A DNA stretch of 64,000 nucleotides from an uncultured Acidobacteriaceae bacterium (GTDB lineage Bacteria; Acidobacteriota; Terriglobia; Terriglobales; Acidobacteriaceae), in contig CAVQCF010000039.1 in assembly GCA_963710885.1 (NCBI GenBank), positions 102,153 to 166,152 of the forward strand, written 5' to 3'. How positions within the stretch are numbered: position 1 is the stretch's first letter; the number at the start of each line of letters is the position of its first letter. The position numbers and the translations under genes were made by a program. The notes beneath the pieces are model-generated. The model worked only from the letters and a program-made list of their open reading frames with translations, ran no database searches and had not been told where the DNA came from. Positions 1 to 17,006 of the stretch are shown one piece after another.

Positions 1-194
1 GTCTCAGTAACGGTTACCAACTGTTCCGGCTGTTGGTAGGGCAGTGGCTGCAGAAGCACGGTGTCGACCACGCTGAAGGTCGCCGTACTCGCCCCAATCC
101 CGATGGCCAACGTCAAGACGGCAATCGCGGTAAAACCGGGGTTCTTCCCGAGCATCCGCCAGCCGTATCGAATGTCCTGCATCAGACTCTCCAT
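1..194 (-). CDS. ADOP-type duplicated FtsX/MacB-like permease, 5' end only (gene continues past the left window edge); paralog 7 of the array
   Basis: Not in the ORF track because it is truncated. The minus-strand ATG at 194, 9 nt after the stop of 204..2654, reads [64 protein letters not shown]. This is the same N-terminal signature and TM1 as the six complete paralogs upstream. The 4..207 track ORF is a different frame. Confidence 0.75.
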
Positions 195-203
195 CGGATC
201 TCC

Positions 204-2654
204 TCACTCATACCGCAACGCCACCATGGGATCGACCCGGGTTGCGCGGTACGCCGGAATCAGGCTCGCCAGCAACGCGATCACCGCCAGCAGCGCGGTC
301 ACCGCGACAAACGTAACGGGATCACTCGGCTTAATCCCAAAGGTGAGGCTCGACAGAACGCGCCCCAGCAACAGCGCGCCGGCCGCACCGATGGCGACTC
401 CGAGCAAAGTCGGCTTCATGCCCTCGAACACGACACGGCGGAGTTCGTCGCTGAGGCGGGCACCCAGAGCCAGGCGGATTCCGATTTCACGTACGCTCCG
501 CTTCACGCTGTACGACAGCACGCTGTAAATTCCCACCGCCGCCAGCAACAAGGCGAGCCCAGCGAATGATCCGAGCAGCAGCATGTTGAAGCGCTGTTGG
601 GAGACGGAGTTCGCGACCAGATCGTCCATGGTCAGAATGTCGCGCAATGGCATCGCCGGATCGACGTCATGTACCGCGTTCGCCACGGGTGAGACCATGC
701 CTGCAGAACTGGAGACGGACCGAACGACCAGCGTCATCGGAAACGAAGTCCATCCGCCGTTCGATGAAGCGGAAAGCTGATCAAGAGGAAAGTAGAGAGC
801 GGCGTTCGCGCGGGTCTGGTCGAGACTATCAAGTTTCACGTCGCCCACAACTCCCACCACTTCGCGAACCGCATCCGGATAGAACGTCAGCGTAAGACGC
901 TTGCCTAGAGGGTCTTCACCCGGCCAGAACTGCCGCGCCATCGACTCGCTGATCAGAATGACGTCCGGCCTGCCCGCAATGTCCGCGTCGCTAATATCCT
1001 GTCCACGCAGAATCGGGACATGCAGCGCACTCATGTAACCGGGGCTGATAAGGCGCACGTCGACCTCCGGTTGTTCCGACATCGGCACCACCGGACGGCC
1101 CTCAATCGCGATCGGTTGATGGGAACCACCGTTGTCCAACGGAATGTCATCAATTACGCCGGCAGATTCAACACCGGGTAAGGTTCGTATCCGCTGCAGC
1201 GCTCCCTCGAAGAAATTGATCTGCTGCAGCGGAGAAGAAAATTTTGCCCGGGAGACCATTGCGTTCATGGTCAGAACATTGCGTGCATCAAAACCTGGAT
1301 TCACGCTTTGCAGTTTCTGAAAGCTGCGGATCATTAGCCCCGCGCCGACTAACAGCATGAGTGAGAGGGCAACCTCCGACACAACCAGGATGCTGCGCGT
1401 ACGATGTCCACCGGAGTCCGCATCGGTTCGACCCAGTCCCTGCTTGAGCACCTGACTCACGTTGCCCCGCGCCAGACGCACGGCGGGCAGCACTCCCGCA
1501 ATCACTCCGCTGAGTACCGAAATCAGGGCTGTGAAAGCAAGGACCTGCGAATCCAGTTTGATCTCCGTGAAACCGGGCAATTTGTCTCCCAGAAAAGCCA
1601 CAATCAGGCGGATTCCATAATGTGCGCACGACAGGCCAAGCGCTCCACCCGCGAGTGCGAGAAGCACTGTCTCAGTGAGGAGTTGGCGGAGCACGCGCGG
1701 CCAGCTCGCTCCCAACGCCGTCCGAATCGCAATCTCTTTTTGACGACTGAACGTTTTTGCCAGCGCCAGATTGGCCACGTTCACACAAGCAATCAGAAGG
1801 ACGAATCCAACCGCTCCGAGCAGCACGAGCAAGGGAGTGCGCACGTCGCTCACCATGTCGTCATGCAAAGGCAGGACTGTCGCGCCCCATCCCTTATCGT
1901 CATCGGGATAGAGTTGCTGCAAGCGGTCTGAGATCGTGTTCATCTCCGCCTTCGCCTGCTGCAATTCAACCCCGGGCTTCAGGCGCGCGATGACCATGTA
2001 GTGGTGCTCGCCGCGTACCGCGCGTTCTTTATCGGTCCACGCCATCGGAGTCCACATCTGAGCGAAATCAGGAAACCGGAAGCTCGCCGGCATGACGCCG
2101 GCCACAAGGTACGCTTCGCCATCCAGATTGATGTTGTGACCTACGATCTCAGGATTAGATCCAAAGTGCTCCTGCCACATGCGGTGACTGAGAACCACCA
2201 CGTGCGAATGTCCTACTTGATCCTCGTCGGGAGATAACACTCGGCCCAGCATGGGAGGAATACCCAAGGTCGAGAAGAAGCCGGCGGACACGGCACAGGC
2301 GTCCACCTGTTCAGGCTTGTTGCCACCCGTCATCGTGAAGCTGTGGCCCGTCATGATTGCCATGCTGGCGAATACGTGGTTCTGGTTTTCCCAGTCTGCG
2401 TAATTCGCCGCCGACACTGAGAACAATGTCATTCCAGGGAAGCTCTTCGGTGGAGGAACATGCCAAACACGGACGAGCCGGCCCGGATCCTTAAACGCAA
2501 GCGGCCGCAGCAGAACTCCGTTGACCACGCTAAAGATGGCGGTGTTCGCGCCAATCCCGAGCGCGAGTGTGATCACGGCCACGGCCGTGAATCCAGAGCT
2601 TTTGAAAAGCTGACGCAATGCGAAACGGACATCCTGAAATAGCCCACTCATCAT
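204..2654 (-). CDS. ADOP-type permease (two MacB/FtsX permease modules with two large extracytoplasmic domains in one chain), paralog 6
   Basis: 816 aa. N-terminus is [41 protein letters not shown] (TM1). It is followed by a long hydrophilic region, a 3-TM block, a second long hydrophilic region and a second 3-TM block, ending in DPMVALRYE. The architecture matches the acidobacterial duplicated orphan permease family (TIGR03434; MacB_PCD + FtsX twice) as I recall it. Confidence 0.9.
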
Positions 2655-2660
2655 GACCTC

Positions 2661-5087
2661 CTATTCATACCTCAGCGCCACCATGGGATCGATTTTGGCA
2701 GCACGCCACGCGGGAAGCCCGCATGCGATCATCGTCACGGCGCCCAGCAGCAAAATCACGCCGAAATACGCAAATGGATCAAGGTTCGACACGCCGAACA
2801 GCAGCGTGGAGAGGACCTGACTCGCCGCTACGGCGCCGAGCAGTCCCAACGCGATCCCGACCCCCGTGAGGGCCATTCCCTGCCGAATGACAAGCGTCAG
2901 AATGTCACGGCGGGATGCACCCAGAGCTGACCTCACTCCGATCTCGCGAGTTCGCTCAGTGACGCCACCAGAGAGGACGCCATAAATGCCGGTCGCCGCC
3001 AATATCAATGACACCAGCCCGAACGCCTCAAACAGGATCAGCACAAACCTTCTCTCAGCCGCTGACGCAGCGATCAAACTATCCATCGTGGCAACGCGGA
3101 CGATCGGTTGATCTTTGTCCACCGACCAAATCGCGTTCTTGATGGCGGGTGTCAGCGCGGCCACATTGCCGCGTGCGCGAACCGTCAGCGACAGCGTTCC
3201 GTCCGCCCAATGCCACTGTGTTGTCGTACCGTAGACCGCATCGGCGTCACTCATCGCGAGCGACATCTGCTTTACATCGCCGACGACGCCAACGATCGTG
3301 AAGAGCGTCAAACTGCTTCCGCCACCAACCTGAACCCGCTTCCCGATTGGATCCTGATCGGGAAATCTGCGCTTTGCCAGCGACTCGCTGATCAGCATCA
3401 CCCGCGGAGCATCCGCCGTGTCTTGAGTACCGAGAAGACGGCCGCGACGCAGCGGGATGCCCAGCGTTTCGAGATAACCCGGTGTCACGGCGTAACGGAA
3501 GACTGGATAACCTTGCTCGGGACCGTCGTTCTCGAAGTGCGCGCCATACACATCCGAATCTCCACTCAGGGGCAACTGGCTGGTGAAGGCCGCAGCGGTG
3601 ACACCGGGAACGGCGCGCACCGCATCGAGCGCTTGCGCGAAAAATCGATGACACACACGATCATCGTCATAACGGTGGCCGTAGGTTTGCACCTGCATGG
3701 TGAGCAATTGCGAACCGTCGAAGCCCACAGGTACGGCGAACAGCCTGCGCAAACTGTGGAGCAGCAGTCCCGCACCCACCAGCAGCACCAGCGCGATCGC
3801 GATCTCGGCAACAGCGAATGTCCGGCGCGTAACCTGATGAGTTCCAGCGGTGCGCCGTGAGCCTTCCTGTATTCCGATGTGCAGGTCGGCGCGGGAAGCT
3901 TGTCGTGCCGGTATCAACCCCACCGTCAGGCCGATGAGCGTCGTGATACCGAGCGCGAATCCGAATACCGTGCCGTCTAAATGGATCGCGTCCACCCGCG
4001 GCAGCCCTGGTGGGCTAAGCGCAACGAGTGCACGTACACCCACCTGCGCGACAATCATGCCGAGAGCGCAGCTCAACATGGCCAGCAACAGACTCTCGGT
4101 GATCAGTTGCCGGATCAGTCGCGGTCGTCCCGCGCCCAGTGCAACACGCATCGAGAATTCACTGCGGCGCTGCGCGCTCTGCGCCAGCAAAAGGTTGGTC
4201 ACATTCACGCAAGCGATCAGGAGCACCAGTATTACCGCCCCGAAAACGGCGAGCAGCGCCGGCCTTACCCCGCGCGTAACGTCATCCTGCAGCGCGCTCG
4301 CGATAAACCCGTGAGCTAGAGACACAAAACTAGGCCGTGGAAATTCCGCTACTGGAGTCTGCGCGATCCATTTCAGATCGCTCCGGGCTTGGGCCATGCT
4401 GACACCCTCCCGCACCCGCCCTACCATCCGCAGATGATGGCCCCATTCCCTGGTCTGAACGGACGCGACATTCCCCGCGTCGTACTGCAGGGGCGACCAG
4501 ACCTCAGCCGAGGGAGCCAGCACATTGTCAAACCCGGGCGGCATCACGCCGATGACGGTGTAGTTGTCGCCGTCGAGCCGGATCTGGTTTCCAACGATCG
4601 CGCGATCGCCGCCGAGGCGGCTACGCCACAGCCCGTCGCTGACGATCACCACTTTGGGTCCATGCAGCACATCGTCGGTGTCCCGGAAATCTCGGCCCAG
4701 AGCCGGCGGCACCCCGAGCGCCCGGAAGCAACCCGCGGTGACCTGCTGCCCATCAAAACGCTCCGGCTGACCCTCTCCCGAGAGGGTCGGCTGCCAGGCC
4801 TTCATCACGGCCAGCGCTTCGAAAGACCGGCTACGCTCCGCTACTTCGCGATAGGTGTGGAACGATTGGGGAATGCGGGATCCATCCTCCCCGGCATACC
4901 AGATCATCATGATCCGGCTGGCATCGGGATATGGCAGCGGCTCAAATAGGATCGGATTGATCGTGCTGAAGATGGCCGTCGTCCCGCCGATACCGAGCGC
5001 GAGTATCACGATGGCCGTGCAGGCGAACCCCGGGCTCTTGCGCAACTGGCGCACCGCATAGCGAAGATCTTGCAGCCATCCGCTCAT
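2661..5087 (-). CDS. ADOP-type permease, paralog 5
   Basis: The track ORF is 2661..5108 (GTG start). I prefer the ATG at 5087 (MSGWLQDLRYAVRQLRKSPGF...). It aligns with the starts of the sibling genes and is preceded by GGGAGG. It also removes the 8-nt overlap with the upstream gene. 808 aa, ending DPMVALRYE. Confidence 0.9.
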   Translation of the reverse strand: MSGWLQDLRYAVRQLRKSPGFACTAIVILALGIGGTTAIFSTINPILFEPLPYPDASRIMMIWYAGEDGSRIPQSFHTYREVAERSRSFEALAVMKAWQPTLSGEGQPERFDGQQVTAGCFRALGVPPALGRDFRDTDDVLHGPKVVIVSDGLWRSRLGGDRAIVGNQIRLDGDNYTVIGVMPPGFDNVLAPSAEVWSPLQYDAGNVASVQTREWGHHLRMVGRVREGVSMAQARSDLKWIAQTPVAEFPRPSFVSLAHGFIASALQDDVTRGVRPALLAVFGAVILVLLIACVNVTNLLLAQSAQRRSEFSMRVALGAGRPRLIRQLITESLLLAMLSCALGMIVAQVGVRALVALSPPGLPRVDAIHLDGTVFGFALGITTLIGLTVGLIPARQASRADLHIGIQEGSRRTAGTHQVTRRTFAVAEIAIALVLLVGAGLLLHSLRRLFAVPVGFDGSQLLTMQVQTYGHRYDDDRVCHRFFAQALDAVRAVPGVTAAAFTSQLPLSGDSDVYGAHFENDGPEQGYPVFRYAVTPGYLETLGIPLRRGRLLGTQDTADAPRVMLISESLAKRRFPDQDPIGKRVQVGGGSSLTLFTIVGVVGDVKQMSLAMSDADAVYGTTTQWHWADGTLSLTVRARGNVAALTPAIKNAIWSVDKDQPIVRVATMDSLIAASAAERRFVLILFEAFGLVSLILAATGIYGVLSGGVTERTREIGVRSALGASRRDILTLVIRQGMALTGVGIALGLLGAVAASQVLSTLLFGVSNLDPFAYFGVILLLGAVTMIACGLPAWRAAKIDPMVALRYE

Positions 5088-5100
5088 CGTGTGCCTCCCA

Positions 5101-7512
5101 CTACTCACACCTCAGGGCTTCCATGGGATCAGTTTCTGTCGCGCGGTGGGCTGGAATGTAACATGCCGCCACAGTCGTCGCGAGCAGCACAAGTGCGACG
5201 CCGACGAAGGTCACCGGATCGGTTGACGTCACCCCAAATAGCAAACCCGCTATCGCTCTCGCCGCCGCGAGGGCCGCGATCGTGCCCACCGTGATTCCAG
5301 TGAGTGCCTGCCGCAGTCCCTCTTTCATGACCAGAACGAGGACATCCTGGCGCGTTCCGCCGAGCGCGATTCGTAAGCCGAATTCGCGAGTTCGCTGGCT
5401 CACGGAATACGCAATCGCACCATAGAGTCCGAGTGAAGAGAGCACCAAGGCCAACGTGGCGAAGGCCCCCATCAGTTGCAGGCCCAGTCTTCGTGCAGCA
5501 AGAGTCTGAAGAGCGATGCTGTCCATCGTTCGTATTTCGTTGATTGGCTGGTCAGCCTTGATCGAGTGCACGCGCGCCCGCAAAGATCCGGCTATGTTGA
5601 TCGGGTCTCCGGTGGTGCGCACGAAAAGGTGCATGCCGGCAAACACGTGATGGGTCGGGTCTTGTAAGAAGGGCATGTACAGCGCCGGTTCCGGCAAAAC
5701 ATCCAACCCCCGCTGCCTCACGTCTTCCACGACACCGACGACTTCGCGAAACCGGGCGACAGCGTTGCTGTCGCGGCCAGGCCCCACGTAGTTGACTGCA
5801 AAACGTTTGCCGATGGGATCTTGGCCGGGCCAGTACGTCTGAGCCATCGCTCGGTTCACAATCACGACTGCTGGTGCAGCCTCGTCATCGTGTGGCGTAA
5901 ACAGGCGGCCTCGGAACAACCGGGTTCCAGTCGCACGAAAGTAGTCATCACTGATCCAACAGGCATCCGTGGTCGGTGCGTTCTTGGGATCGACGGGGCG
6001 ATCATCGAAAGTCAAGGTTGCGGTCGGTGCCCAATTCGCGGGCACGCAGTCACTGACGCCCGTTGCCCGTACTCCTGGTAGAGATGACACCGACTCGAGA
6101 ATCCGTCTGTAAAATGTCGCGCCTGAGGCCTCGTAGTAATTCGTGCGCAGATAGGACTCAAGCAATTGCTCCGGCTGGAATCCAGGATTAGAACGCGCTG
6201 CCAGCCGGAAACTGCGAAACAGGAGTCCCGCACCGACCAGCAGTACCAGTGTAATTGCAACCTCGGACGCGATCAACAGTTGCAAGCTTCGCCGGTTCGA
6301 TTTTCCGACTTGTCCGCGTCCTGATTTGAGAGCGGAAGGTATATCAAGTCGCGAGAAGGTTACTGATGGTCCCCAGGCCAGCAGCAAACTGGCTGCGAAC
6401 GTGACCAGCAACGCAATTCCCAATACCGTGGCATTGACTTGAATGGAGTGGCTCCGCGGCAGGTTGCCAAAGTTGAAGCTCGTGGTCAGCCTCACTCCCC
6501 ACACCGCCAACGCAACTCCCAAAGCTCCCCCAAGCACGCTCAGCAGCAGATTCTCAGCGACCAGTTGCTGCACAATGCGCTTGTGACTAGCGCCGAGCCC
6601 GAGCCTCACGGCGATTTCCGACTGTCGCTTTTCGCTCCTGGCCAGTAGTAGGCCCATGACGTTCACGCAGGCGATCACCAGAACCAGGCCGACGGAAGCG
6701 GCAATAATGTCCAACTCCGCGCGCACCTGACCCACGAATTCATCTTTGAGCGGGACCAGTTTCACCGCCAAACTTGAAGATGCCCCGGGCGCCCGCCGCA
6801 GGATTGCCGTCAGATCCTGCTCCGCTTGTGCGGGGCTTATACCAGGCATCGTGCGACCGATCACGGTAAGGAACTTGTTCCCTCGTAATCGCATCCACGC
6901 GAAGTCAGGAATGACCTTTGCCCAGATATCGGTATGGGGAAACAGATCCGGAATCGACGGCATGACTCCGATAACGGTTTGGCCTCCTCCGCTAAGGTTC
7001 AGGACGCGTCCCAGAACATGCGGGTCGGCGCTGAGCTGTTGTCTCCAGAAGCGCTCTGAAATGACGACCTGAACTCCGTCCGTTTGATACTCCTCCGGGG
7101 TGTATAGCCGGCCGAGGAGTGGCTTTACTCCGAGCATTGGAAAGAAGTCGTAGGAGATGGCTGTGCATATGACATTTCGCGGCTCGCCTAGCCCGGTCAA
7201 GCTGTACGTGAAGTGTGGGAGCAGTTCGGCCAAGCCCTCGAAAGATCGGTTTTGTTCCTTGTAGTCCTGAAAATCGGGCCCGGACGCGCCTGTGTTGAGT
7301 GATTTCTCTTCCGGCGACACAGCCCACACGGCAAATAGATGATCGGGCTCGTGAAAAGGCAAAGGTCGAAGGAGCACGCCGTCGATTACGCTGAAAACAG
7401 CCGTATTCGCGCCAATCCCCAACGCTAGAGTTAGGATGGCAACCGCGGCGAACCCCGGGCTCTTGCGTAACTGCCGCACCGCGTAGCGAAGGTCCTGCAG
7501 CCATCCACTCAT
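5101..7512 (-). CDS. ADOP-type permease, paralog 4
   Basis: 803 aa. N-terminus [40 protein letters not shown]; C-terminus DPMEALRCE. Same two-module layout as the siblings. Confidence 0.9.
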   Translation of the reverse strand: MSGWLQDLRYAVRQLRKSPGFAAVAILTLALGIGANTAVFSVIDGVLLRPLPFHEPDHLFAVWAVSPEEKSLNTGASGPDFQDYKEQNRSFEGLAELLPHFTYSLTGLGEPRNVICTAISYDFFPMLGVKPLLGRLYTPEEYQTDGVQVVISERFWRQQLSADPHVLGRVLNLSGGGQTVIGVMPSIPDLFPHTDIWAKVIPDFAWMRLRGNKFLTVIGRTMPGISPAQAEQDLTAILRRAPGASSSLAVKLVPLKDEFVGQVRAELDIIAASVGLVLVIACVNVMGLLLARSEKRQSEIAVRLGLGASHKRIVQQLVAENLLLSVLGGALGVALAVWGVRLTTSFNFGNLPRSHSIQVNATVLGIALLVTFAASLLLAWGPSVTFSRLDIPSALKSGRGQVGKSNRRSLQLLIASEVAITLVLLVGAGLLFRSFRLAARSNPGFQPEQLLESYLRTNYYEASGATFYRRILESVSSLPGVRATGVSDCVPANWAPTATLTFDDRPVDPKNAPTTDACWISDDYFRATGTRLFRGRLFTPHDDEAAPAVVIVNRAMAQTYWPGQDPIGKRFAVNYVGPGRDSNAVARFREVVGVVEDVRQRGLDVLPEPALYMPFLQDPTHHVFAGMHLFVRTTGDPINIAGSLRARVHSIKADQPINEIRTMDSIALQTLAARRLGLQLMGAFATLALVLSSLGLYGAIAYSVSQRTREFGLRIALGGTRQDVLVLVMKEGLRQALTGITVGTIAALAAARAIAGLLFGVTSTDPVTFVGVALVLLATTVAACYIPAHRATETDPMEALRCE

Positions 7513-7525
7513 TGTTTGCCTCCCA

Positions 7526-10012: not shown

Positions 10013-10018
10013 TGGGCT

Positions 10019-12469
10019 TCACTCGTAACGCAGTGCTGCAACCGGATTCGTTCGCGAAGCTTTGTATGCTGGTACGAAACCCGCGAATAGTGACACCCCA
10101 CTCAACAGCGCGGTTGCTACCGCGAAAGTAAGCGGATCATTTGGTTGCAGGCCATAGAGAAGCGAACCCGCGCCTCGCGCGCCCGCCAGGGCAAGAACCA
10201 ACCCAGCCACAATTCCAGCCGTCAGCAGCAGCAGGGTTTGCCGAAGGATGATTCCCACGACACTTCCTCGTGTCGCCCCCAAGGCGATGCGAATGCCGAT
10301 TTCGTTCCTCCGCATCTGTGCCAGATAGGAGATCACGCCATAAAGCCCGACCGTGGTCAGCAGCACGGCAAGAAATCCAAAGAACCCCGAGAGCATCGCC
10401 ATCAGCCGCTCCGCGACCAGTCCATCTCGAACCTGCTCTTGGAAATCAGTGAATTCTGCTAGTGCGTCAGGATGCTTCTGGGCAAGTGCATTCTTAACTC
10501 CGGTTGCGATTGCTTCCGCAGGCATGTCCGACCGAATCATCACCATTCCCCAAGGCCCTTGGTCCGGGAACTGTGAAGCGGGCGCGAAGGTCATGGGTGG
10601 CGTCGCGCTCCGGATATCGTTGTATCGAGTGTCCGGAATAACGCCTACGATCTCGTACAGCGTTGACGGATAGTCCGGTTCCGCATTGGTCCGCAAGGTT
10701 TGTCCGATCGGATTACCATTCAGATACTGGCGAACAAAGGTCTCGTTCACGATCGCGACATGCGGCGACGACGCTGTATCGTCCCGGCCGAAACCGCGCC
10801 CGCGGACGATTGGAATGTCCATGGTTTGAAAATACTCCGGACTCACCCAGGTGAACTTCGAAGTCCCCTCCCTGGCCCCAACGTGAACGCCGTGCTCCCA
10901 ACTCCCACCCACCAATGGGACGCGGGTTGAGATCGCTGCGCTACGCACGCCCGGAACCGAACGAATCTCATCAAGTAATTCCGTCTCGTACGAACCCCAG
11001 CGCTCTGGTTGTAAATGAGACTGCCAGAATCCCAGAAACGCTACGGTAATCCCGCTTTCGCGCATTCCGGGGTTCAGTGTCAGCAGATTGCGAAAACTCC
11101 TCACAAACAGAAGCGCGGCGACCAGCAGCACAAGTGAAATTGAAATTTGGGCGGCGACCATGCCTCGTTGCAATGAGAACTGCTCGCGCCCCATCGTCGT
11201 TCCCCTCCCACCCGCTCGCATCGAGGAAAGTGGCTCAGTGCGAATGGCGCGCAGCGCGGGAACAAGTCCGAAGATCACGCACGTCACAACGGTCGCTGCG
11301 GTTGCGAAAAGCAGAACACGCCAGTCCGTGACGATCTGCAGATTCACCGGGTCACCTTGTGTCGAGATGGCCCATACCAGTGCTCGGCTCAAGATCGGTG
11401 CTAACCCCATCCCTGCAATCGAGCCGATTCCGGCTAGCAGGACACTTTCCACCAACAGGTTCTGTAACACGCGTGCCCGCCCAGCTCCCAGCGCCATTCG
11501 AACCGCGATTTCACGCTCACGCCGGTTTGCTCGCGCGAGCATGAGGCTGGCCAGATTGGCGCACGCGATCAATAGAACGAGCCCCGTGATCGCAAGAAGC
11601 AGCGCCAGCGATCCGTGATCATCGCGGAGGCCACTGACGCCGGTGGATGCTGGGTATGCTGCCAGTTGGAAGCGCTTATAAGTCTCGGTCGTGCCTGAGT
11701 CGCGACCCGGCGGAACTGTGGCTTCGAAAATGCCTGCGCTTAGAGCGCTGAATTCCGCGGAAGCGCGCTGAATCGTCCAACCCGGCTTCAGGCGGCCCAT
11801 GACTGACAGTTCGAACACGTCGCTGCGGAATCCTTCTTTGGGCTGGCAGAATGGCAACGCGAGATCGAAGTCCTGGCCCACCGCCATTCCAAAGAAATCC
11901 GGTGGAGTCACGCCAACAATTTCCACCAGATCGTTATTCGCGATCAGCTTGATCCCTGCGGCCAGATCCTGCCCGCCCAGCTCACGCTGCCAATAGGAGT
12001 AGCTGGCAACAGCCCGCGTCACTGGACACATTCCCTCATCCTCAGGCATCAACAAACGGCCGCGCCAGGGACGCACGCCCAACACAGGGAAAAAACTTCC
12101 GCTCACCCAAAGCCCATTGAAGTGCCGCATCTCACTCCCACGGCCCACATACCTCTGATTCAGGCTCCAGGCAAACATTCCGGAAAATGCCTGCTGTTTG
12201 TCGCGAATCTCGCGCCAGAGCGGTTGCGTTAGTTCTCCGTATTGCTGATTGAGGCCCATGCCTCGGTTGCCGCCGACGATCTTCACTTCCGCAAGTTCTC
12301 GTGGATTCTGAACGGGCAGAGTGCGTAATCGAATAGCATTGAGCAACTGGAAAATCGACGCGTTCCCTCCGATTCCCAGCGCAAGCATAAAAATTGCAAC
12401 CGCCGTGAAGCCGGGGTTTTTGCGCAACTGCCGCACCGCATAGCGAAGATCTTGGAGCAACCCGTTCAT
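10019..12469 (-). CDS. ADOP-type permease, paralog 2
   Basis: 816 aa. N-terminus MNGLLQDLRYAVRQLRKNPGFTAVAIFMLALGIGGNASIF; C-terminus NPVAALRYE. Two-module FtsX layout. Confidence 0.9.
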   Translation of the reverse strand: MNGLLQDLRYAVRQLRKNPGFTAVAIFMLALGIGGNASIFQLLNAIRLRTLPVQNPRELAEVKIVGGNRGMGLNQQYGELTQPLWREIRDKQQAFSGMFAWSLNQRYVGRGSEMRHFNGLWVSGSFFPVLGVRPWRGRLLMPEDEGMCPVTRAVASYSYWQRELGGQDLAAGIKLIANNDLVEIVGVTPPDFFGMAVGQDFDLALPFCQPKEGFRSDVFELSVMGRLKPGWTIQRASAEFSALSAGIFEATVPPGRDSGTTETYKRFQLAAYPASTGVSGLRDDHGSLALLLAITGLVLLIACANLASLMLARANRREREIAVRMALGAGRARVLQNLLVESVLLAGIGSIAGMGLAPILSRALVWAISTQGDPVNLQIVTDWRVLLFATAATVVTCVIFGLVPALRAIRTEPLSSMRAGGRGTTMGREQFSLQRGMVAAQISISLVLLVAALLFVRSFRNLLTLNPGMRESGITVAFLGFWQSHLQPERWGSYETELLDEIRSVPGVRSAAISTRVPLVGGSWEHGVHVGAREGTSKFTWVSPEYFQTMDIPIVRGRGFGRDDTASSPHVAIVNETFVRQYLNGNPIGQTLRTNAEPDYPSTLYEIVGVIPDTRYNDIRSATPPMTFAPASQFPDQGPWGMVMIRSDMPAEAIATGVKNALAQKHPDALAEFTDFQEQVRDGLVAERLMAMLSGFFGFLAVLLTTVGLYGVISYLAQMRRNEIGIRIALGATRGSVVGIILRQTLLLLTAGIVAGLVLALAGARGAGSLLYGLQPNDPLTFAVATALLSGVSLFAGFVPAYKASRTNPVAALRYE

Positions 12470-12482
12470 CGTTCGCCTTCCA

Positions 12483-14957
12483 CTACTCGTACCTCAGGGC
12501 CACCATGGGATCGACTTTCGCTGCCCGCCACGAAGGCAGAAATGCGGCAATGCACCCAACCCCCACGACGCAAGAGGTCGCAAGCCCGAAGCTGACAGGA
12601 TCGAGCGGGGATAACTGGTAGAGCATCGCGCTCAAGAAACGGGCGCCGAAGAACGCAAGGACGAATCCAGCCGCCGCCCCAGCGCAGCTGATCAAAAGGC
12701 TTTCCCGCATAATCATCCAGAGCACACGGCCCCGTGGCGCTCCGAGGGCCATGCGTGTTCCAATCTCGGTTGTGCGCCGATTGGTTCGATACGACAGGGT
12801 TCCGTACAGCCCGGTAGCTACCAGCAGCGCGGCCAGCCCACCGAAAAATCCGCCCAGCCGCGCAAACATAGTGGGCCCCTCATAAGATTCCTCAAATTGC
12901 GCGCGCTGCGTGATGGGCTTCTCCAGCGGGACATTGGGATCCATGTCGTGAACCAATTGCCGGATTGAGGGTAGAACGGTCATCGGTTCGCCATTCACCC
13001 TCACCTCAACATGCAGCGTGTCCCCGACGTTGAGACCTTGGAACGCAGCGTAGTAGGCCATCGGCATGGGCGGCTCATCGACGCGCGTGTATCGACTGTC
13101 TTTCACGACGCCCACGATCGTTCGGTTATCGCGAACCTTGTGGCCCAGCGGATTCGTATTCGGCAGAAACCGCTTCACAAACGTTTCATTCACTACTGCG
13201 ACCGGAAGAGAGGTCGGAGTATCGCTGTCGGCGAGGTCCCGGCCTTCGAGAATTGGGACTCCAAGCACCTCGAAGTAATCAGGACCAACATTGTTGCTCC
13301 GCACGATTGACTGGGGGCCAAATTTCGCCCCGAGACTGACTCCGTCGACTGAGTCGTCATTGTTGTTGCTCCAGCCCGAGCCGATGCGATTTTCCATGAC
13401 CGTCGCGGATTCCACGCCCGGTAGAGCGTGAATGCGGTCGAGCAGAGTGCGATAAAACGCCAGAGTCTCCTGGGCACTCTGCGCGCGCTGCGGCGTGATT
13501 CCAAAAACCAACAGCCCGTCCGCGCGCATTCCCAGGTCCTGAGTCTGGTAGTGGCGAAGAGTGCGAATCAGAAGCCCGGCAGCAACCAGGAGCAATAGGC
13601 AAATCGCCACCTGCGACGCCATGAGCACTCTGCCGCCCAGAGCACGGCGCCGGTCCTGAGTGATATGGCTTGCGGTAGCCCGCAGCACGCCCGAAACCGG
13701 AATCCGCAATGCAACCCACAGCGGAGCTACGCTGAAGGCCAGCGCGCTGATCACCGAAATGGCAAGAGTAAAGAACAACACGTTACGGTCAGGATCGAGG
13801 CCAGTCTCGATTCCCGACCAATCGGCCAAAGCGCGCGTAGCGAAGACGGCGAATGCCCAACCGAGGGCCGCACCAGCGATGACCAGGAGCGAACTCTCGG
13901 TCAGCAGTTGCCGAAAGAGATGCGCTCTTTCTGCTCCAATCGCCATTCGCAGGCTGAACTCCCGTCGCCGTGCTTCATTGCGTGCCATGATCAGCAGAGC
14001 AACGTTGGTGCAGGCAATCAGCAACACCAGAAGCACCAGGCCCATCAAGATCCGCACTGGCTCTCGGAACTGCTGGTTGTAGCCCTGAATCCCCTTGGCC
14101 GGATCGAAGTTCAGCAACGGCTTCCACTGCTTCGGATCAATGGCGCCGACTCCGATCTTGGCCGCTTCGCCGAACGTGGACTGCAAGGCCATCCCCGCCT
14201 GCTCGGGCGAGACATGCGGCTTGAGTCGCGCCATCAGTGGGAGGCACCACCATCTCGGGGTTCCGTAGAGGCTATTGATGTTGGCAGGATTGCCCCACGC
14301 ATTCAGTTCCGCTCGGCTCTGTAGAGGAATCCAAAAGTCCGTCGAGCTGCCTGCTTCGACTCCGCGAAACCCGCGCGCAGCAAGGCCGACAATCGTGAAA
14401 GGCACATTTTTGACGAATAACGTCGCACCGAGGACCGCTGGGTCTCGTGCAAAACGCCGCGTCCAATAGTCGTAACTGATGACGGTTACCGGTGAGTGAT
14501 CCTTCTCGTCCTCCAGAGAAAAACCACGGCCAAGAGCAATTCCCGCGCTCAGACCCGAAAAGAAGTTTCCACTGACTTCATCGCCGTTGGCCTCCTCCGG
14601 CATGGCGCCGTATCGAACGGGGACCTTGCCAATGCCGAGAGGAACGTACGCAATGACGTCATCCAACACATCATGGCGCTGGCGAAGCGCCTCGAATACT
14701 GGCTCGGAGAAAGAGGTCTCACTGTTCCCTGTATTGCCCGCGCCTGGCGGCTGGTTCCCGCTGGCGATCTGCAAATAATAAAGACACTCCGGATCGCGCA
14801 CTGGAAGCATGCGCGACAGAACCGAGTTCATTACGCTGAAGACCGCCGTATTCGCGCCAATTCCGAGGGCAAGGGTCAACACCGCAACGGTCGTGAACCC
14901 AGGGCTCTTGCGCAGCTGGCGCAGTGCGTAACGGAGATTCTGAACCAGGCTGTTCAT
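12483..14957 (-). CDS. ADOP-type permease, paralog 1 (first after the ATPase)
   Basis: 824 aa. N-terminus [40 protein letters not shown]; C-terminus DPMVALRYE. Confidence 0.9.
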   Translation of the reverse strand: MNSLVQNLRYALRQLRKSPGFTTVAVLTLALGIGANTAVFSVMNSVLSRMLPVRDPECLYYLQIASGNQPPGAGNTGNSETSFSEPVFEALRQRHDVLDDVIAYVPLGIGKVPVRYGAMPEEANGDEVSGNFFSGLSAGIALGRGFSLEDEKDHSPVTVISYDYWTRRFARDPAVLGATLFVKNVPFTIVGLAARGFRGVEAGSSTDFWIPLQSRAELNAWGNPANINSLYGTPRWWCLPLMARLKPHVSPEQAGMALQSTFGEAAKIGVGAIDPKQWKPLLNFDPAKGIQGYNQQFREPVRILMGLVLLVLLIACTNVALLIMARNEARRREFSLRMAIGAERAHLFRQLLTESSLLVIAGAALGWAFAVFATRALADWSGIETGLDPDRNVLFFTLAISVISALAFSVAPLWVALRIPVSGVLRATASHITQDRRRALGGRVLMASQVAICLLLLVAAGLLIRTLRHYQTQDLGMRADGLLVFGITPQRAQSAQETLAFYRTLLDRIHALPGVESATVMENRIGSGWSNNNDDSVDGVSLGAKFGPQSIVRSNNVGPDYFEVLGVPILEGRDLADSDTPTSLPVAVVNETFVKRFLPNTNPLGHKVRDNRTIVGVVKDSRYTRVDEPPMPMAYYAAFQGLNVGDTLHVEVRVNGEPMTVLPSIRQLVHDMDPNVPLEKPITQRAQFEESYEGPTMFARLGGFFGGLAALLVATGLYGTLSYRTNRRTTEIGTRMALGAPRGRVLWMIMRESLLISCAGAAAGFVLAFFGARFLSAMLYQLSPLDPVSFGLATSCVVGVGCIAAFLPSWRAAKVDPMVALRYE

Positions 14958-14975
14958 AGGCTACTCGCTGGCCGT

Positions 14976-15701
14976 TCAAGCGTGCGTGTCAGCCATCAGT
15001 TTCTGTAGCTCTTCCTCTGCCACAACCTTGCCGTCGAAGAGATGTACTTCTCGTTGCGCGTGCTTGGCGAACCGCGGATCGTGCGTCACCATGCAGATGG
15101 TCGCGCCCTCGCGGTGCAGGTTTTGCAGCAACTCCATCACCGCTTCGCCGTTGCGCGAATCCAAATTCCCAGTAGGTTCGTCCGCCAGCAGGATGGAAGG
15201 TTTTCCCCCAAGCGCGCGCGCTACGGCCACACGCTGCTGTTGACCGCCAGACAGCTGCGACGGATAGTGCCGGACGCGGTGCGCCATGCCGACGCGCTCC
15301 AACGCTTCCATGACCCGCGCCTTCCGGTCAGCCGCCGGCATCCGTTGGCGATAGGTCAGAGGCAGTTCGACGTTCTCGTAGACGGTGAGATCGCCAATCA
15401 GGTTGAAGCTCTGAAAGATGAACCCGATCTCCTGATTTCGAATGCGCGAACGCTCCGCAAAATCGAGGTTCTCAACTGTCTTATTGTTGAGTGAGTAGCG
15501 TCCCTGCGTGGGCGTATCGAGCAATCCGATGATGGAAAGCAGCGTCGACTTGCCGCAACCCGAAGGTCCCGACATCGCCACATACTCCCCTTTGGCAATC
15601 GAGAGGTGCACGCCGGAAAGAGCGTGCGTTTCAATTTCGTCGGTGTAGAAGACTTTGGTCAGATCCTGAATCTGGATCAACGGCTGTCCTGTTTCGGTCA
15701 T
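14976..15701 (-). CDS. ABC transporter ATP-binding protein, MacB/LolD/FtsE type (stand-alone NBD)
   Basis: 241 aa. Walker A GPSGCGKST, Q-loop IGFIFQ, signature LSGGQQQRVAVARAL, Walker B ILLADEPTGNLD, H-loop VTHD. Lies 18 nt upstream of the first permease. Confidence 0.95.
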   Translation of the reverse strand: MTETGQPLIQIQDLTKVFYTDEIETHALSGVHLSIAKGEYVAMSGPSGCGKSTLLSIIGLLDTPTQGRYSLNNKTVENLDFAERSRIRNQEIGFIFQSFNLIGDLTVYENVELPLTYRQRMPAADRKARVMEALERVGMAHRVRHYPSQLSGGQQQRVAVARALGGKPSILLADEPTGNLDSRNGEAVMELLQNLHREGATICMVTHDPRFAKHAQREVHLFDGKVVAEEELQKLMADTHA

Positions 15702-15746
15702 GGATTCTTGCCTCGATATGTTGGATTTCGTTCTTAACTTGCGGTC

Positions 15747-17006
15747 CTACTCCAAACGGATGCGATCCGTCTTATCCCAACGCGACATGTCGGAAAGAAT
15801 AACGGTATCGCCTTCGTGCAGGCCTTCGAAAACTTGAATCGAATTCACCGATTCCCGTCCCACCTTCACCGGCACACGTGACGCTTCTTTGCCGTCCGCA
15901 TCCAGCTTGAACAAGCTGATCGTACTGTTCTCCTGCCCAAACGCCGGACGCCCCACATAGAGAATGTTGTCCAGTCGTTCCAGATCGATCGTCCCATCCA
16001 CGCTCAAATCCGGACGCGCCCCCTCGGGCAACTGTCCGGTTAGTTTGACGTCGACGGTCACCGTTCCGTTTTGTACAGCAGGATCGACGCGCATCACGGT
16101 TCCGTTAATGATCCCGTTATGCGTGTCGATTGCCGCCGGTTCACCATCCCGCACGTCCCGCGCTTGAGTTTCCGCGATCTTCAATGTCGCCATCAGATGG
16201 TTCGGCTCGACCACCTTCGCAAGCATCGCTCCCGGCTGAACGTGCTGCCCCACCTGCAACGGAAGATCTACCAGCACTCCGTTAATGCCAGCACGCACTT
16301 TCAGGGCTTCCAGTTGCTTCTTCTTCAGACCAGCGAGGGTTTGCGCCTGGTCAACCTTCGCCTGTTCCTGTGCCAACTGAGTGTCGATCGCTTTCTTGTT
16401 GATCACCAGCCGCTGCTCTTCGAGATCGTTTCGTGTCGTGAGTTCGTCTGCTTTGCCCTTGGACGCTTTGTAGGCCAGGCCTGAAATCACTCCTAAGTCG
16501 TAAAGAGCCTTGTCGGTATCCGCCTGTCGTTGTGCCTGACTGTAGTCGGCGGTCACGGTGGCGGCGCCAGCCTTCTGAGTCATCAGGTCGCTGTCGAGCT
16601 TTACCTTGAAGCTCTGGTATTCGGCCTCCGCGGCCCTAAGTTGCAGGTCGGCGTCTACGGCCGCCTGTTCCACCTGGGGATTGCTCATCTCGAGAAGAAT
16701 GTCATCCGCCTTTACCTGCGAACCCGGCAGCATGCGGATGCGCACCACTGTAGCCTCAGTTTCAGCGGGAATCTGCCGAACCGCTTCCTGGCTGGGCACC
16801 AGCGAGCCTGGCCCCCGCACTTGGCGCAGCATCGATCCGTGTTTTACGGTGTCGGTCCACACCGTTCCGCGCTCGACTGAGGGTGCTGCCGGCCTAAGCC
16901 GCGATACTCCAACGGTTAAAGCTGCAATGACCACGATGCCGATGGCCGCGAACACAATCTGGCGGCGTAGTTTCTGACGCTTAAATTCTGGGCGAGCGAT
17001 ATCCAT
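15747..17006 (-). CDS. HlyD/MacA-family periplasmic adaptor (membrane fusion protein)
   Basis: 419 aa. N-terminal basic tail plus a single TM (IVFAAIGIVVIAALTV). A long coiled-coil-like stretch (QVEQAAVDADLQLRAAEAEYQ... QLAQEQAKVDQAQTLAGLKKKQLEAL) is followed by beta-barrel-like segments. First gene of the operon. Confidence 0.85.
   Translation of the reverse strand: MDIARPEFKRQKLRRQIVFAAIGIVVIAALTVGVSRLRPAAPSVERGTVWTDTVKHGSMLRQVRGPGSLVPSQEAVRQIPAETEATVVRIRMLPGSQVKADDILLEMSNPQVEQAAVDADLQLRAAEAEYQSFKVKLDSDLMTQKAGAATVTADYSQAQRQADTDKALYDLGVISGLAYKASKGKADELTTRNDLEEQRLVINKKAIDTQLAQEQAKVDQAQTLAGLKKKQLEALKVRAGINGVLVDLPLQVGQHVQPGAMLAKVVEPNHLMATLKIAETQARDVRDGEPAAIDTHNGIINGTVMRVDPAVQNGTVTVDVKLTGQLPEGARPDLSVDGTIDLERLDNILYVGRPAFGQENSTISLFKLDADGKEASRVPVKVGRESVNSIQVFEGLHEGDTVILSDMSRWDKTDRIRLE

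Follow-up and report, generated by a model that had tools for sequence, protein, structure and literature searches.

An ADOP permease array behind an adaptor and an ATPase gene in an uncultured Acidobacteriaceae bacterium, compared with related Terriglobia loci

Introduction

The permeases of the ADOP family (TIGR03434) were named for lacking neighbouring ATPase genes. Among described systems, YbbA2-YbbP has a 2:1 stoichiometry and a fused, pseudo-symmetric permease (PMC12646458). A single ATPase common to several ABC systems has been described (PMC4519317), and BceS is known to sense through BceAB (PMC4513084, PMC10314905). An ADOP array, clustered and accompanied by ATP-binding transporters, was mentioned for Psychroflexus in a 2014 genome paper (PMC3914696), which was the sole mention found; no functional description of a layout of MFP, ATPase and ADOP array was found in the literature searched. 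Here a locus of this layout from an uncultured soil bacterium of the Acidobacteriaceae is compared with about 160 related Terriglobia loci. From gene order and conservation we infer, with moderate confidence, that a shared motor, adaptor and duct serve interchangeable specificity modules, which, if true, may explain how the ATPase-less ADOP permeases are powered.

Organization of the locus

The window, i.e., the whole stretch of 64,000 nt that was analysed, contains in its first 17 kb an MFP gene, an ATPase gene, six complete ADOP permease genes and a seventh truncated at the window edge, all on the minus strand according to the ORF coordinates. The adaptor MFP (15747..17006 (-); 419 aa; Pfam HlyD_3, HlyD_D23 and Biotin_lipoyl_2) is followed by the ATPase A1 (14976..15701 (-); 241 aa; Pfam ABC_tran), a nucleotide-binding subunit of the MacB/LolD/MJ0796 class. 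The complete permeases, given with orthogroup and TIGR03434 score, are P1 (12483..14957 (-); 824 aa; orthogroup 12; 806.8 bits), P2 (10019..12469 (-); 816 aa; orthogroup 47; 792.3 bits), P3 (7526..10012 (-); 828 aa; orthogroup 10; 840.3 bits), P4 (5101..7512 (-); 803 aa; orthogroup 46; 839.2 bits), P5 (2661..5087 (-); 808 aa from the ATG; orthogroup 15; 881.1 bits) and P6 (204..2654 (-); 816 aa; orthogroup 1, the most widespread one; 977 bits). All six pass the ADOP cut-off of 622.3 bits (range 792-977 bits), and each carries two MacB_PCD and two FtsX domains (Pfam). Regarding P7 (1..194 (-)), the first 64 codons are present up to the window edge; the 65-aa translation of the edge stretch 1-197 aligns to TIGR03434 positions 1-61, 63 of the 64 residues are the same as in the gene after the P6 orthologue in locus L143, and the full-length orthologues have 810 aa.

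The spacers along the operon measure 45, 18, 13, 6, 13, -8, 6 and 9 nt, the overlap becoming a 13-nt spacer if P5 begins at the ATG at 5087. This start is more likely than the GTG at 5108 (ORF 2661-5108), since it lines up with the paralogue N-termini and has a GGGAGG box 7 nt before it; starting at the GTG would add 7 aa that are found in no paralogue. Boxes resembling Shine-Dalgarno sequences precede P2 (GGAAGG), P4 (GGGAGG), P5 (GGGAGG), P6 (GGAGG) and P7 (GAGGAG), with none or a weak one ahead of P1 and P3. The hairpin scan found no terminator-like hairpin in the gene junctions, every match lying inside an ORF, and matches were not enriched (25 vs 17.9 +/- 4.1 in shuffles). On re-derived coordinates, a preliminary description of this DNA was matched exactly in gene order, positions, strand and spacers of 6-45 nt; its report of such boxes in several spacers, its failure to find internal terminators and its assignment of the permeases to the ADOP family, including P7 by its match to the model start, were likewise borne out.

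The permease array is far beyond chance. An assembly artefact was ruled out by orthologues (up to 95% identical) in the same order in independent assemblies. Positions 1-17145 are probably the 17 kb nearest the promoter in a far longer transcription unit, whose genes would be co-transcribed.

Comparison with related loci

The genome set comprised the 80 species best matching through A1, with one locus per GTDB species, all but two of them titled as Acidobacteriota lineages. Judged by gene order, a common unit is conserved across Terriglobia, composed of a putative sigma-54 promoter with two palindromes, MFP, A1, an ADOP array, a second ATPase (A2), a TolC-like OMF, an NtrC-type regulator and a histidine kinase. 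MFP and A1 occur in this orientation in 80/80 genome loci and are adjacent in 79 (in L078 one permease lies between them). A2 closes the array in 35/37 genome loci and in 10/10 metagenome loci whose array end can be seen, and wherever sequence past A2 is available the next gene is TolC-like, L029 and L170 being the exceptions. The finding of a single ATPase gene holds inside the window only; in relatives, A2 closes 45 of the 47 arrays with a visible end. Neither A2 nor OMF, regulator or kinase was found within the 64-kb window; by extrapolation from the relatives, the A2, duct and regulators of this array would lie beyond its left edge.

The number of permeases per genome locus was zero in 10 species, one in 6, two in 10, three in 9 and four in 2, and at least four in 35 more loci. 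The largest closed arrays seen have 6 permeases; open arrays reach at least 10-11 on contigs of 0.3-1 Mb. The count of seven tandem permeases given earlier is correct as a minimum for the window and understates the array, as 11 or more are present in the closest syntenic relative; this array has at least 7 and, by synteny, probably 12 or more. Over 471 junctions the median spacer was 11 nt, and 85% were of 30 nt or less. The layout proved not to be a one-off; ATPase adjacency to ADOP arrays is common, being the rule in the 80 best-matching species and in 74 of 76 P6 orthologue loci. The preliminary description would have regarded an adjacency that is common and already functionally described as a refutation; it is indeed common, but no functional description was found in the literature searched.

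Ten of the 80 species have the frame without a permease between A1 and A2. In L086-L090 (at least 5 species) it consists of MFP-A1-A2-OMF only, and no permease gene was detected from 8.5 kb upstream to about 7 kb downstream. The genes of such a frame overlap by 4 nt in L008, where MFP, both ATPases and the duct are all kept. Permease-less frames must use permeases encoded elsewhere.

Orthologues of P6 lie inside an array in 74/76 metagenome loci whose context can be seen, and may be its first permease, its last or any in between. A 95% identical orthologue of P2 occupies the same position in L171; P4 is missing at the equivalent position in L171 and L091, and an 87% identical orthologue follows a P7-like gene in L172. 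L091 lacks P2, P4 and P5. Individual permease families nevertheless persist across dozens of species.

It is scarcely credible that the ADOPs are true orphans working without any ABC ATPase, their place behind A1 being coincidental packing. The family name, which by the TIGR03434 description refers to the absence of neighbouring ATPase genes, and the many flank ADOPs outside the frame would agree with it, but the layout is kept in 80/80 species when followed through A1 and in 74/76 loci when followed through a permease. The parts of the protein that are most conserved (see below) speak against it as well.

Features of the permeases

Overall pairwise identity among the window permeases is 30-38%. 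As the preliminary description had noted, the ends of the proteins are conserved and the periplasmic regions divergent: identity is 63% in the N-terminal helix plus TM1 and 43% in TM6-8, whereas the two periplasmic domains show 24% and 27%. Pairwise identity among 531 ADOPs was bimodal (25-45% for paralogues, 60-100% for orthologues), yielding about 85 orthogroups, and 3 of 371 adjacent permease pairs belong to the same orthogroup. The arrays are mosaics drawn from at least 85 permease families of deep divergence. The dN/dS values of 0.09-0.13 (P3 0.13 against its L091 orthologue, P6 0.087) indicate purifying selection, which together with the low identity of the copies excludes a recent amplification. 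Between close orthologues, the periplasmic domains had no clear surplus of amino-acid replacements (omega 0.08-0.18), giving no sign of an arms race, which counts against the preferred reading of a shared chassis.

It is very improbable that the array is a redundant or decaying amplification, with most copies surplus, non-functional or being lost and ATPase adjacency mattering for the first copy only. The fast shift of cassette content between close relatives (P4 gone in L171; P2, P4 and P5 in L091) and broken ADOP ORFs in some MAG arrays fit such decay, but the copies, at their level of identity, are no recent duplicates, all six complete ones are intact, above the family cut-off and constrained, and the families last across dozens of species with same-family neighbours being rare. 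Many of the fragments come from long-read MAGs, where frameshift errors would be likely.

The AlphaFold2 model of P1 (pLDDT 82, pTM 0.74) has eight TM helices (4+4), two periplasmic domains and two coupling helices. Its best structural match was YbbP, followed by MacB and LolCDE; Spr0695, BceB, YtrF and HrtB were also in the top list. By this model, an ADOP is built of two 4-TM halves fused into one chain, both of which have a periplasmic domain and a coupling helix of their own; by itself it provides the whole membrane part of a type VII (MacB/LolCDE-like) ABC machine, without the ATPase domain. Conservation scores of the 85 group representatives, mapped onto this model, peak in the C-terminal helix (0.82), coupling helix 2 (0.77) and the N-terminal elbow helix (0.76), followed by TM1 (0.74) and coupling helix 1 (0.69), with 0.36-0.40 in the periplasmic domains. 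Across families, conservation is highest in the segments predicted to contact the ATPases. That it should be strongest in the two coupling helices and in the cytoplasmic helices at the N- and C-terminus is sensible only if a nucleotide-binding domain docks there, contrary to an orphan function. The coupling-helix consensus differs consistently between the halves (R.rE.AvR.ALGA vs RtrEIGiRmALGA). The C-terminal (V/I)ALR(Y/C)E is kept in 8/8 in-array families listed; the C-terminus is more variable in the out-of-frame families listed.

ATPases, adaptor and duct

The best NCBIfam models for A1 were DarD, LolD, MacB NBD and DevA, none of which reached its equivalog cut-off, and the best PDB sequence matches were MJ0796, Spr0694, LolD, MacB and YbbA. 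Pattern matching found Walker A, LSGGQ and Walker B-Glu intact, and the alignment shows the switch His. A1 is 84-99% identical across the 80 species (dN/dS 0.018). A2 of the relatives is 41% identical to A1, belongs to the same NBD class and is canonical in the same motifs (Walker A, LSGGQ and Walker B-Glu by pattern, switch His by alignment).

To our knowledge, all solved type VII systems have homodimeric NBDs. Two separate motors, with A1 and A2 as homodimers serving different permease subsets or with A2 belonging to another machine, are nonetheless quite improbable here. The fully canonical motifs of both ATPases, the two loci without A2 and the YbbA2 homodimer on the asymmetric YbbP (PMC12646458) favour this reading; it is opposed by the joint presence of A1 and A2 in 45/47 closed frames, by their translational coupling with a 4-nt overlap in L008 (the one permease-less frame whose coordinates were read) and by the non-identical ADOP halves with their consistently different coupling helices. 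The two loci in question, L023 and L071, have A1 followed directly by the OMF and no recognisable A2, so that A1 alone may suffice and a heterodimer would not be required. They weigh against a shared chassis, as does the A1-A2 distance, which can exceed 25 kb and is then unusual for obligate partners, and as does the L005-7 lineage, in which an 88% identical A1 stands alone beside a divergent ADOP, without MFP.

The MFP scored 91.6 bits against TIGR01730, just below the cut-off of 94.9, and matched the DarC adaptor model weakly over the full length. One hydrophobic segment (residues 12-38) forms its N-terminal membrane anchor. Identity is 74-98% in the 80 species, with a dN/dS of 0.03 vs L091. 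That one adaptor should fit dozens of periplasmic domains only 24-27% identical is a strong demand on the shared chassis. This bears on an unlikely reading in which the ATPases are shared and the pump is not: A1/A2 would drive all permeases, of which one or a few couple to adaptor and duct, the remaining ones acting in LolCDE-, FtsEX- or YbbAP-like manner in lipid or lipoprotein extraction or in driving a periplasmic partner, with no outer-membrane efflux. Apart from the divergent domains, it draws on the great diversity of type VII ABC outputs on one fold (PMC12646458) and on YbbP, a lipid-extracting protein without adaptor, being the best whole-chain structural match. However, no LolA-, EnvC- or TesA-like genes are interleaved in any array, the junctions are tight, and MFP and OMF are kept in essentially every frame regardless of permease content.

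Under the preferred reading of a fully shared chassis, one ADOP would dock two nucleotide-binding subunits from a shared pool, A1 and probably A2, one per half. By mechanotransmission, the TM helices would relay ATP binding and hydrolysis to the periplasmic domains, and substrate from the periplasm or outer leaflet would be pushed via the shared adaptor and outer-membrane duct. The permeases would be non-redundant alternatives in specificity that compete for a single chassis, which scattered 'orphan' ADOPs elsewhere in the genomes may use too. We infer the physical sharing of A1/A2, MFP and duct among permeases from sequence data, and likewise the A1-A2 heterodimer, the efflux direction, the substrates and the sensed signal. 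The idea of one motor with interchangeable permeases, put forward earlier, is the one best supported by the comparative data, with the correction that a single ATPase is probably incomplete.

Promoter and regulation

Regulation was missed in the preliminary description, namely a conserved sigma-54-type promoter in the window, together with its enhancer-like sites, and an NtrC-type system in relatives. Upstream of MFP on the minus strand no sigma-70-like site was found. An enhancer-like palindrome, TGTCCGGTAGTGGACA (17130..17145 (-); TGTCC-N6-GGACA), lies 139 nt before the MFP start codon, and a second, weaker one, GTTCCGGCAGTGGACA (17110..17125 (-)), 20 nt downstream of it; a sigma-54-type -24/-12 element, TGGAAGGCGAGTTGCC (17019..17034 (-); TGG-N8-TTGC), ends 13 nt before the MFP ATG. 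The first palindrome is at a fixed site (about -139) in 107/112 related upstream regions (126 matches vs 1.1 expected in shuffles), and the second corresponds to another conserved block, nTCC-N6-GGACA, in the stacked alignment of the 107 regions. TGG-N8-TTGC occurs at -28 to -30 in 82/112 upstream regions and within -45 to -15 in 87/112 (0.2 expected). These motifs suggest that the operon is sigma-54 dependent.

A regulator of the domain order REC-Sigma54_activat-HTH_8 follows the OMF in 32/34 loci where this part is visible; the two loci without it lack both DNA motifs too. This covariation is consistent with the promoter motifs having their cognate system in the NtrC-type two-component pair that relatives carry at the far end, and the operon would be switched on by its own two-component system. 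With hardly any periplasmic loop, the kinase may sense by way of the transporter, like BceS. The kinase gene follows the regulator in both loci examined (L017, L086), and its product has two TM helices separated by about 8 residues.

Gene organization of the permease array

The ORF list confirmed the layout given in the preliminary description: on the minus strand within positions 1-17006, the gene for a membrane fusion (adaptor) protein (MFP, 15747-17006; HlyD domains according to Pfam, N-terminal anchor) is followed by the separate gene for the 241-aa ATPase A1 (14976-15701; Pfam ABC_tran), by six complete permease genes (P1-P6; 803-828 aa, each with two MacB_PCD (PF12704) and two FtsX (PF02687) stretches according to Pfam) and by a seventh (P7) at the window edge. 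The first 64 codons of P7 align to positions 1-61 of TIGR03434, the model of the acidobacterial duplicated orphan permeases (ADOPs). The earlier assignment to this family holds, as all six complete permeases scored 792-977 bits against a curated cut-off of 622.3 bits.

The intergenic spacers from MFP to P7 are, in order, 45, 18, 13, 6, 13, -8 (or 13), 6 and 9 nt. For the P4-P5 spacer, 13 nt is likelier because the P5 ATG at position 5087 matches the N-termini of the paralogues and has a GGGAGG box. Shine-Dalgarno-like boxes precede five of the seven permease starts. In the terminator scan the junctions were free of hairpin-plus-T-run structures and such matches were not enriched, in line with the earlier remark that internal terminators are lacking. 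The Rfam scan of positions 1-18300 yielded no RNA family.

Pairwise overall identity among the paralogues is 30-38%. The regional values reproduce the previously noted pattern of conserved ends and divergent extracytoplasmic parts, with 63% in the N-terminal helix plus TM1 and 43% in TM6-8 vs 24% and 27% in the two periplasmic domains.

Conserved frame in related loci

Relatives of A1 at 88-95% identity number thousands. The survey sample consisted of 80 loci with an A1 84-99% identical to that of the window, one genome per GTDB species, all of them MAGs. The titles of 78 of these loci named Acidobacteriota lineages (such as Terriglobia, Acidobacteriaceae and Ca. Sulfotelmatobacter); the remaining two MAGs were labelled Binatus and Verrucomicrobiia. 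When ORFs were classified against references, the recurring order was MFP, A1, a variable number of ADOP genes, a second ATPase gene (A2, 235 aa) and an OEP-domain, TolC-like gene of ~635 aa (outer-membrane factor, OMF). The number of permeases per closed array was 0 in 10 species, 1 in six, 2 in 10, 3 in nine and 4 in two, and at least four permeases ran off the 10-kb flank in 35 further species. The array ended with A2 in 35 of the 37 visible cases and directly with the OMF in the two loci without A2. An OEP-domain gene followed A2 (or, in two loci, came straight after A1) in nearly all closed frames with sufficient visibility.

A metagenome scan with P6 as query added 80 loci, and a P6 orthologue (67-96% identical) lay inside an array in 74 of the 76 with visible context, at the first, the last or any position between. 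The longest closed arrays seen in loci viewed with 10-kb flanks comprised six permeases; longer ones were reached via P7 orthologues (three look-ups). Exact-sequence look-ups of P6 and P4, aimed at continuing beyond the left edge of the window, gave no match, and the genes further downstream were seen through orthologues. The 1.03-Mb contig of locus L171 carries P1, P2 (95%), P3 (95%), P5 (90%), P6 (93%) and P7 (95%) together with five further ADOPs, i.e. an array of at least 11 ADOPs with both ends open, and on the contigs of loci L012 and L011 A1 is followed by at least 10 ADOPs. The median spacer over 471 junctions was 11 nt.

Neither A2 nor an OMF nor the frame regulators were found anywhere in the 64-kb window; by extrapolation, those belonging to the window array, if present, would lie beyond position 1. 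The earlier reading of one adaptor and one ATPase therefore stands inside the window, whereas the frames of relatives add a second ATPase, a duct and a regulator. Likewise, the count of at least seven permeases is right for the window and too low for the clade, in which relatives have at least 11. As a whole, the preliminary interpretation, a single motor serving many permeases, is partly supported, and is widened by the second ATPase, the duct, the regulator, the arrays of at least 11 permeases and the clade-wide distribution.

The term 'orphan' in the TIGR03434 family description means that no ABC ATPase gene is fused or adjacent; Ward et al. 2009 is cited as the source of the ADOP observation. 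This name-giving trait fails for the orthogroups studied here, because only 18 nt separate the stop codon of A1 from the start of P1 and the same A1-ADOP adjacency was recorded in 80 of the 80 species sampled. That the permeases are true orphans is poorly compatible with this arrangement. Loci L086-L090 have a permease-less frame, and the search for ADOPs in the rest of each locus was negative as well. No other observation argues as strongly as such frames for a chassis (MFP, A1, A2 and OMF) that works with permeases encoded elsewhere; they also suggest that 'orphan' ADOPs have a motor after all.

Several loci depart from the common order. In loci L005-L007 (Ca. Sulfotelmatobacter lineage; 7162-10726) a lone, 88%-identical A1 is divergent from a single ADOP, with no MFP, A2 or OMF nearby and no sigma-54 or palindrome motif; this A1 may represent an additional copy, or the frame may have been rearranged. 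In a permease-less, regulator-less clade, one to three ADOPs of family 31 lie upstream of the MFP gene on the same strand (L065, 709-8618; L050, 6152-8617). The three copies in L065 are 61-88% identical with gaps of ~250 nt, the sole clear recent tandem duplication. In L008, another permease-less frame, the TolC-like protein (11169-13076) has a long Gly/Ala-rich low-complexity insert near residues 120-160.

Permease fold and conserved surfaces

An AlphaFold2 model of P1 (52-sequence alignment, pLDDT 82, pTM 0.74) comprises eight TM helices in a 4+4 arrangement, compared with 10 in YbbP or BceB. The first half consists of an N-terminal amphipathic helix, TM1, periplasmic domain 1, TM2, a short coupling helix, TM3 and TM4; after a disordered linker, the second half consists of TM5, periplasmic domain 2, TM6, a coupling helix, TM7, TM8 and a C-terminal helix. 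The model thus has the features that define type VII ABC permeases: a unit of four TM helices in which a large periplasmic domain separates TM1 from TM2 and a coupling helix connects TM2 to TM3. Foldseek ranked YbbP (9GE6) first, followed by MacB, Spr0695, LolC/E, BceB, YtrF and HrtB (E-values 3e-18 to 1e-7), and sequence searches agreed.

Among representatives of 85 orthogroups, the frequency of the majority residue was highest in the C-terminal helix (0.82), followed by coupling helix 2 (0.77), the N-terminal helix (QDlRYAlRqLRK, 0.76), TM1 (0.74) and coupling helix 1 (0.69), and was 0.36-0.40 in the periplasmic domains. Docking of the ATPase on segments of the cytoplasmic face is established by structures of MacB, LolCDE and YbbAP (PMC12646458). 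The top-ranked segments except TM1 coincide with precisely these docking sites and, by analogy, would form the ATPase docking face of ADOPs; ADOP families outside the frame keep these motifs more loosely. ATP hydrolysis probably drives mechanotransmission to the periplasmic domains, as in MacAB-TolC.

The two ATPases

A1 and A2 share 41% identity. Pattern matching recovered Walker A, LSGGQ and Walker B-Glu in the two proteins, and the alignment also shows the switch His in each. Their best-scoring NCBIfam models are shared (DarD, FtsE, MacB and LolD); the top PDB sequence matches of A1 were MJ0796, Spr0694, LolD, MacB, YtrE and YbbA, with A2 matching the same model set. A1 and A2 might act as separate homodimers, each with its full set of nucleotide-binding motifs. 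An A1-A2 heterodimer on an asymmetric ADOP is an attractive possibility: in the permease-less frame of L008, the single such frame with gene coordinates read, A1/A2 and A2/OMF overlap by 4 nt each, and the coupling-helix consensus differs consistently between the two ADOP halves.

Permease diversity and maintenance

Pairwise identities of the 531 ADOPs collected from these loci form two peaks (25-45% and 60-100%) separated by a trough at 45-55%. The permeases fall into ~85 orthogroups, of which the arrays are mosaics; only three of 371 adjacent pairs were neighbours from the same group. Together with the identity of 30-38% in the window, this rules out recent tandem duplication as the origin of the array. 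Close relatives differ by whole permease cassettes. Locus L091, with an A1 99% identical to that of the window, is without P2, P4 and P5 and has a different gene after P1, and in L172 the P4 orthologue is placed after a P7-like gene.

Relative to L091, dN/dS was 0.018 for A1, 0.029 for MFP and 0.087-0.13 for P6 and P3. Redundancy or decay might be considered for an array with such turnover of cassettes; this reading is poorly compatible with the data. Regarding the periplasmic parts, the two orthologue pairs showed no clear excess of change, and diversifying selection on these domains is thus unsupported. A search for long exact DNA repeats at the junctions returned only stretches of 57-234 nt at 60-82% identity. 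These short similarities are attributable to the conserved protein ends, and homologous-recombination hot spots are unsupported since the junctions are without long exact repeats.

The ADOP family is very large, with 48,383 clusters at 50% identity returned by a search at E <= 1e-30. Many distant relatives (proteins P0365-P0510) are 880-935 aa long and have ~70-80 extra N-terminal residues ahead of the conserved helix, a stretch missing from all array members in the window.

Regulation

The 317 nt upstream of MFP were compared with 112 related upstream regions. On the minus strand they contain a conserved palindrome of the form TGTCC-N6-GGACA (TGTCCGGTAGTGGACA, 17130-17145), a weaker second copy 20 nt downstream (17110-17125) and a sigma-54-type element, TGG-N8-TTGC (TGGAAGGCGAGTTGCC, 17019-17034). 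The palindrome occurs at about -139 in 107 of the 112 regions (126 matches vs 1.1 in shuffles). The TGG-N8-TTGC element lies within -45 to -15 in 87 of the 112 (82 of them at -28 to -30) vs 0.2 expected, and its spacing equals that of sigma-54 -24/-12 promoters (GG-N10-GC). The sigma-70 promoter scan gave no match on the operon strand.

A sigma-54 activator domain is encoded after the OMF on the same strand in 32 of the 34 loci with room to see it. In L017 and L086, two related loci, the regulator (~470 aa) has the architecture REC-Sigma54_activat-HTH_8 and is followed by a kinase of ~480 aa with TM helices at ~39-62 and 67-88, a loop of ~8 residues between them and then a HATPase_c domain. 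In the regulator-less loci L050 and L065 both DNA motifs are absent too, as they are in L008, which is related to these two, and in the lone-A1 locus L005. On these sequence features, the array is predicted to be a sigma-54-dependent operon with a cognate enhancer-binding protein, the gene of which would lie outside the window. The predicted transcription start would lie 1-3 nt before the MFP ATG and the message would be leaderless.

Another activator, of 827 aa, is encoded at 51464-53947 (minus strand; GAF-GAF-Sigma54_activat-HTH_8). In the AAA+ domain it shares 43% identity with the array-linked regulator, but it carries GAF domains in place of the receiver of the REC-type frame regulators and probably is not the activator that belongs to the array.

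Comparison with known transport systems

All parts of the system are of known kinds (type VII ABC fold, MacA-like adaptor, TolC-like duct, NtrC-type regulation). MacAB-TolC shares the MacB-type fold, in which a periplasmic domain separates TM1 from TM2, the ATPase class, the in-operon periplasmic adaptor and, in related loci only, the TolC-like duct. In MacB, however, two copies of a 4-TM permease, each carrying an ATPase domain fused to its N-terminus, form a homodimer, whereas the ADOP halves are fused into an 8-TM chain, the frame ATPases are two different, separate genes, up to 11 or more permeases occur per adaptor and duct, and the frame is predicted to be controlled by sigma-54 together with a two-component system of the NtrC type. 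E. coli YbbAP-TesA (PMC12646458; PDB 9GE6) likewise combines a separate ATPase (at 2:1) with a pseudo-symmetric double-FtsX permease whose two periplasmic domains and two coupling helices belong to a single chain, and YbbP is the best whole-chain structural match of the P1 model. It differs in having 10 TM helices in YbbP instead of eight, one ATPase gene, one permease, the partner TesA and neither adaptor nor duct; A1 remains below the cut-off of the YbbA model NF007879 (204 vs 336 bits). In LolCDE, two different 4-TM units (LolC and LolE) sit on separate LolD-class ATPases, and the ADOP halves resemble a fused LolC-LolE, but LolCDE encodes its permeases in separate genes, relies on a LolD homodimer without adaptor or duct, passes a lipoprotein substrate to LolA and is present once per genome.

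Among NCBIfam models, the set for the darobactin exporter DarBCD (NF038008, NF038010, NF038007) scored best for A1 (248 bits) and A2 (236 bits); MFP aligned end to end with the DarC adaptor model, and the DarB model (777 positions) is close to ADOPs in length. The scores are nevertheless far below the equivalog cut-offs (A1 248 vs 375 bits, MFP 65 vs 450, ADOPs at most 32 vs 700), DarBCD has one permease and not an array, and no darobactin biosynthetic gene was found near the array. Bce modules (BceAB-BceRS; PMC4513084, PMC10314905) are type VII transporters encoded with their own two-component system and, as in the related loci, with a kinase of two TM helices and almost no extracellular loop, the hallmark of sensing through the transporter. 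They are found in Firmicutes, without adaptor or duct; BceB has 10 TM helices and one extracellular domain and BceR is OmpR-type and sigma-70 dependent, whereas the frame combines ADOPs of eight TM helices and two periplasmic domains with an NtrC-type regulator and a sigma-54-type promoter. The system thus lies outside MacB proper (fused ATPase, 4 TM), YbbAP (10 TM), DarBCD (cut-offs) and Bce (permease and regulator types).

Group II ECF transporters use one energising module, with two different ATPases (EcfA and EcfA'), for many specificity components. To our knowledge, shared energising modules have until now been confined to importers and ECF transporters. The shared-ATPase systems MsmK/MsiK and FhuC, importers in which one energiser likewise serves many membrane specificity components, are conceptual precedents (PMC4519317, PMC10147376). 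Unlike the array, these and the ECF systems are importers with components scattered in the genome, no adaptor and duct and no single-operon array.

A 42-kb cluster in Psychroflexus torquis (PMC3914696) contains 8-10 ADOP paralogues and transporters with ATP-binding regions. This cluster is abundantly translated; it lies on a genomic island in a member of the Bacteroidota and was mentioned only briefly, without a description of a frame, of regulation or of a mechanism. Clustering of ADOPs with ATPases had accordingly been seen in 2014 but not analysed. Under the ADOP name, the literature search returned only this note and a Dyadobacter study with 28 and 33 annotated copies in two genomes (PMC11573002). 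It yielded no account of a frame in which two ATPase genes enclose a variable number of permeases (0 to at least 11), of a permease-less chassis or of control by sigma-54 and a two-component system.

Proposed mode of action

The simplest model fitting all data has three parts: MFP, A1, A2 and OMF would form a regulated chassis, each ADOP would be a complete but motor-less membrane module, and the modules would be alternative and non-redundant. Co-transcription, physical sharing, direction of transport, substrates and signal are points that we infer. Alternatively, only some array members may use the adaptor and the duct. Taking the shared chassis further, we tentatively propose, as a possibility less likely than not, a plug-in envelope exporter. 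Its chassis (adaptor, A1-A2 heterodimer, TolC-like duct, its own sigma-54/NtrC-type two-component system with a loop-less kinase sensing transporter activity) would service a fast-turnover library of double-FtsX permeases, co-transcribed, not redundant with one another and numbering up to a dozen or more, as well as the many 'orphan' ADOPs scattered through the genome.

The conserved chassis bracketing a variable array, especially in its permease-less variants, offers a concrete, testable answer to the question of what powers ADOPs. If correct, the plug-in exporter would explain why a family of tens of thousands of clusters seems motor-less, and no earlier type VII ABC system would have contained two different ATPase subunits. 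For tripartite efflux, one ATPase pair, adaptor and duct serving many permeases would represent a new principle of organisation. Terriglobia rank among the most abundant bacteria in soil; dominant soil bacteria would thereby gain a combinatorial repertoire for expelling diverse compounds, and the array could be taken to record, in the genome of each lineage, the chemical challenges that it faces.

Other genes in the window

Divergent from MFP, on the plus strand (17324-21935), lie genes for a 297-aa ABC ATPase and a 1230-aa ABC-2 membrane plus peptidase M1 protein; in L011, the closest species, an ABC-ATPase-like ORF is also found upstream of MFP on the opposite strand. Two overlapping FG-GAP plus ASPIC/UnbV ORFs (25372-27233, minus strand) resemble one split gene, of which an intact 590-aa paralogue is present at 21919-23691. 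At 28539-31996 (minus strand), the overlapping ORFs 30764-31996 and 28539-30767 resemble one split CarboxypepD_reg plus OMP_b-brl_4 outer-membrane receptor, the first aligning to profile positions 1-85 and the second to 150-803, which could reflect a frameshift, a pseudogene or a sequencing error. An AcrB-like ORF (45478-47547, plus strand) spans positions 1-607 of the 1021-position ACR_tran profile and is truncated or frameshifted. A purine-catabolism set at 54820-63685 comprises a xanthine/uracil permease, an amidohydrolase, the molybdopterin subunit of xanthine dehydrogenase and a protein in which an FAD-binding subunit is fused to OHCU decarboxylase.
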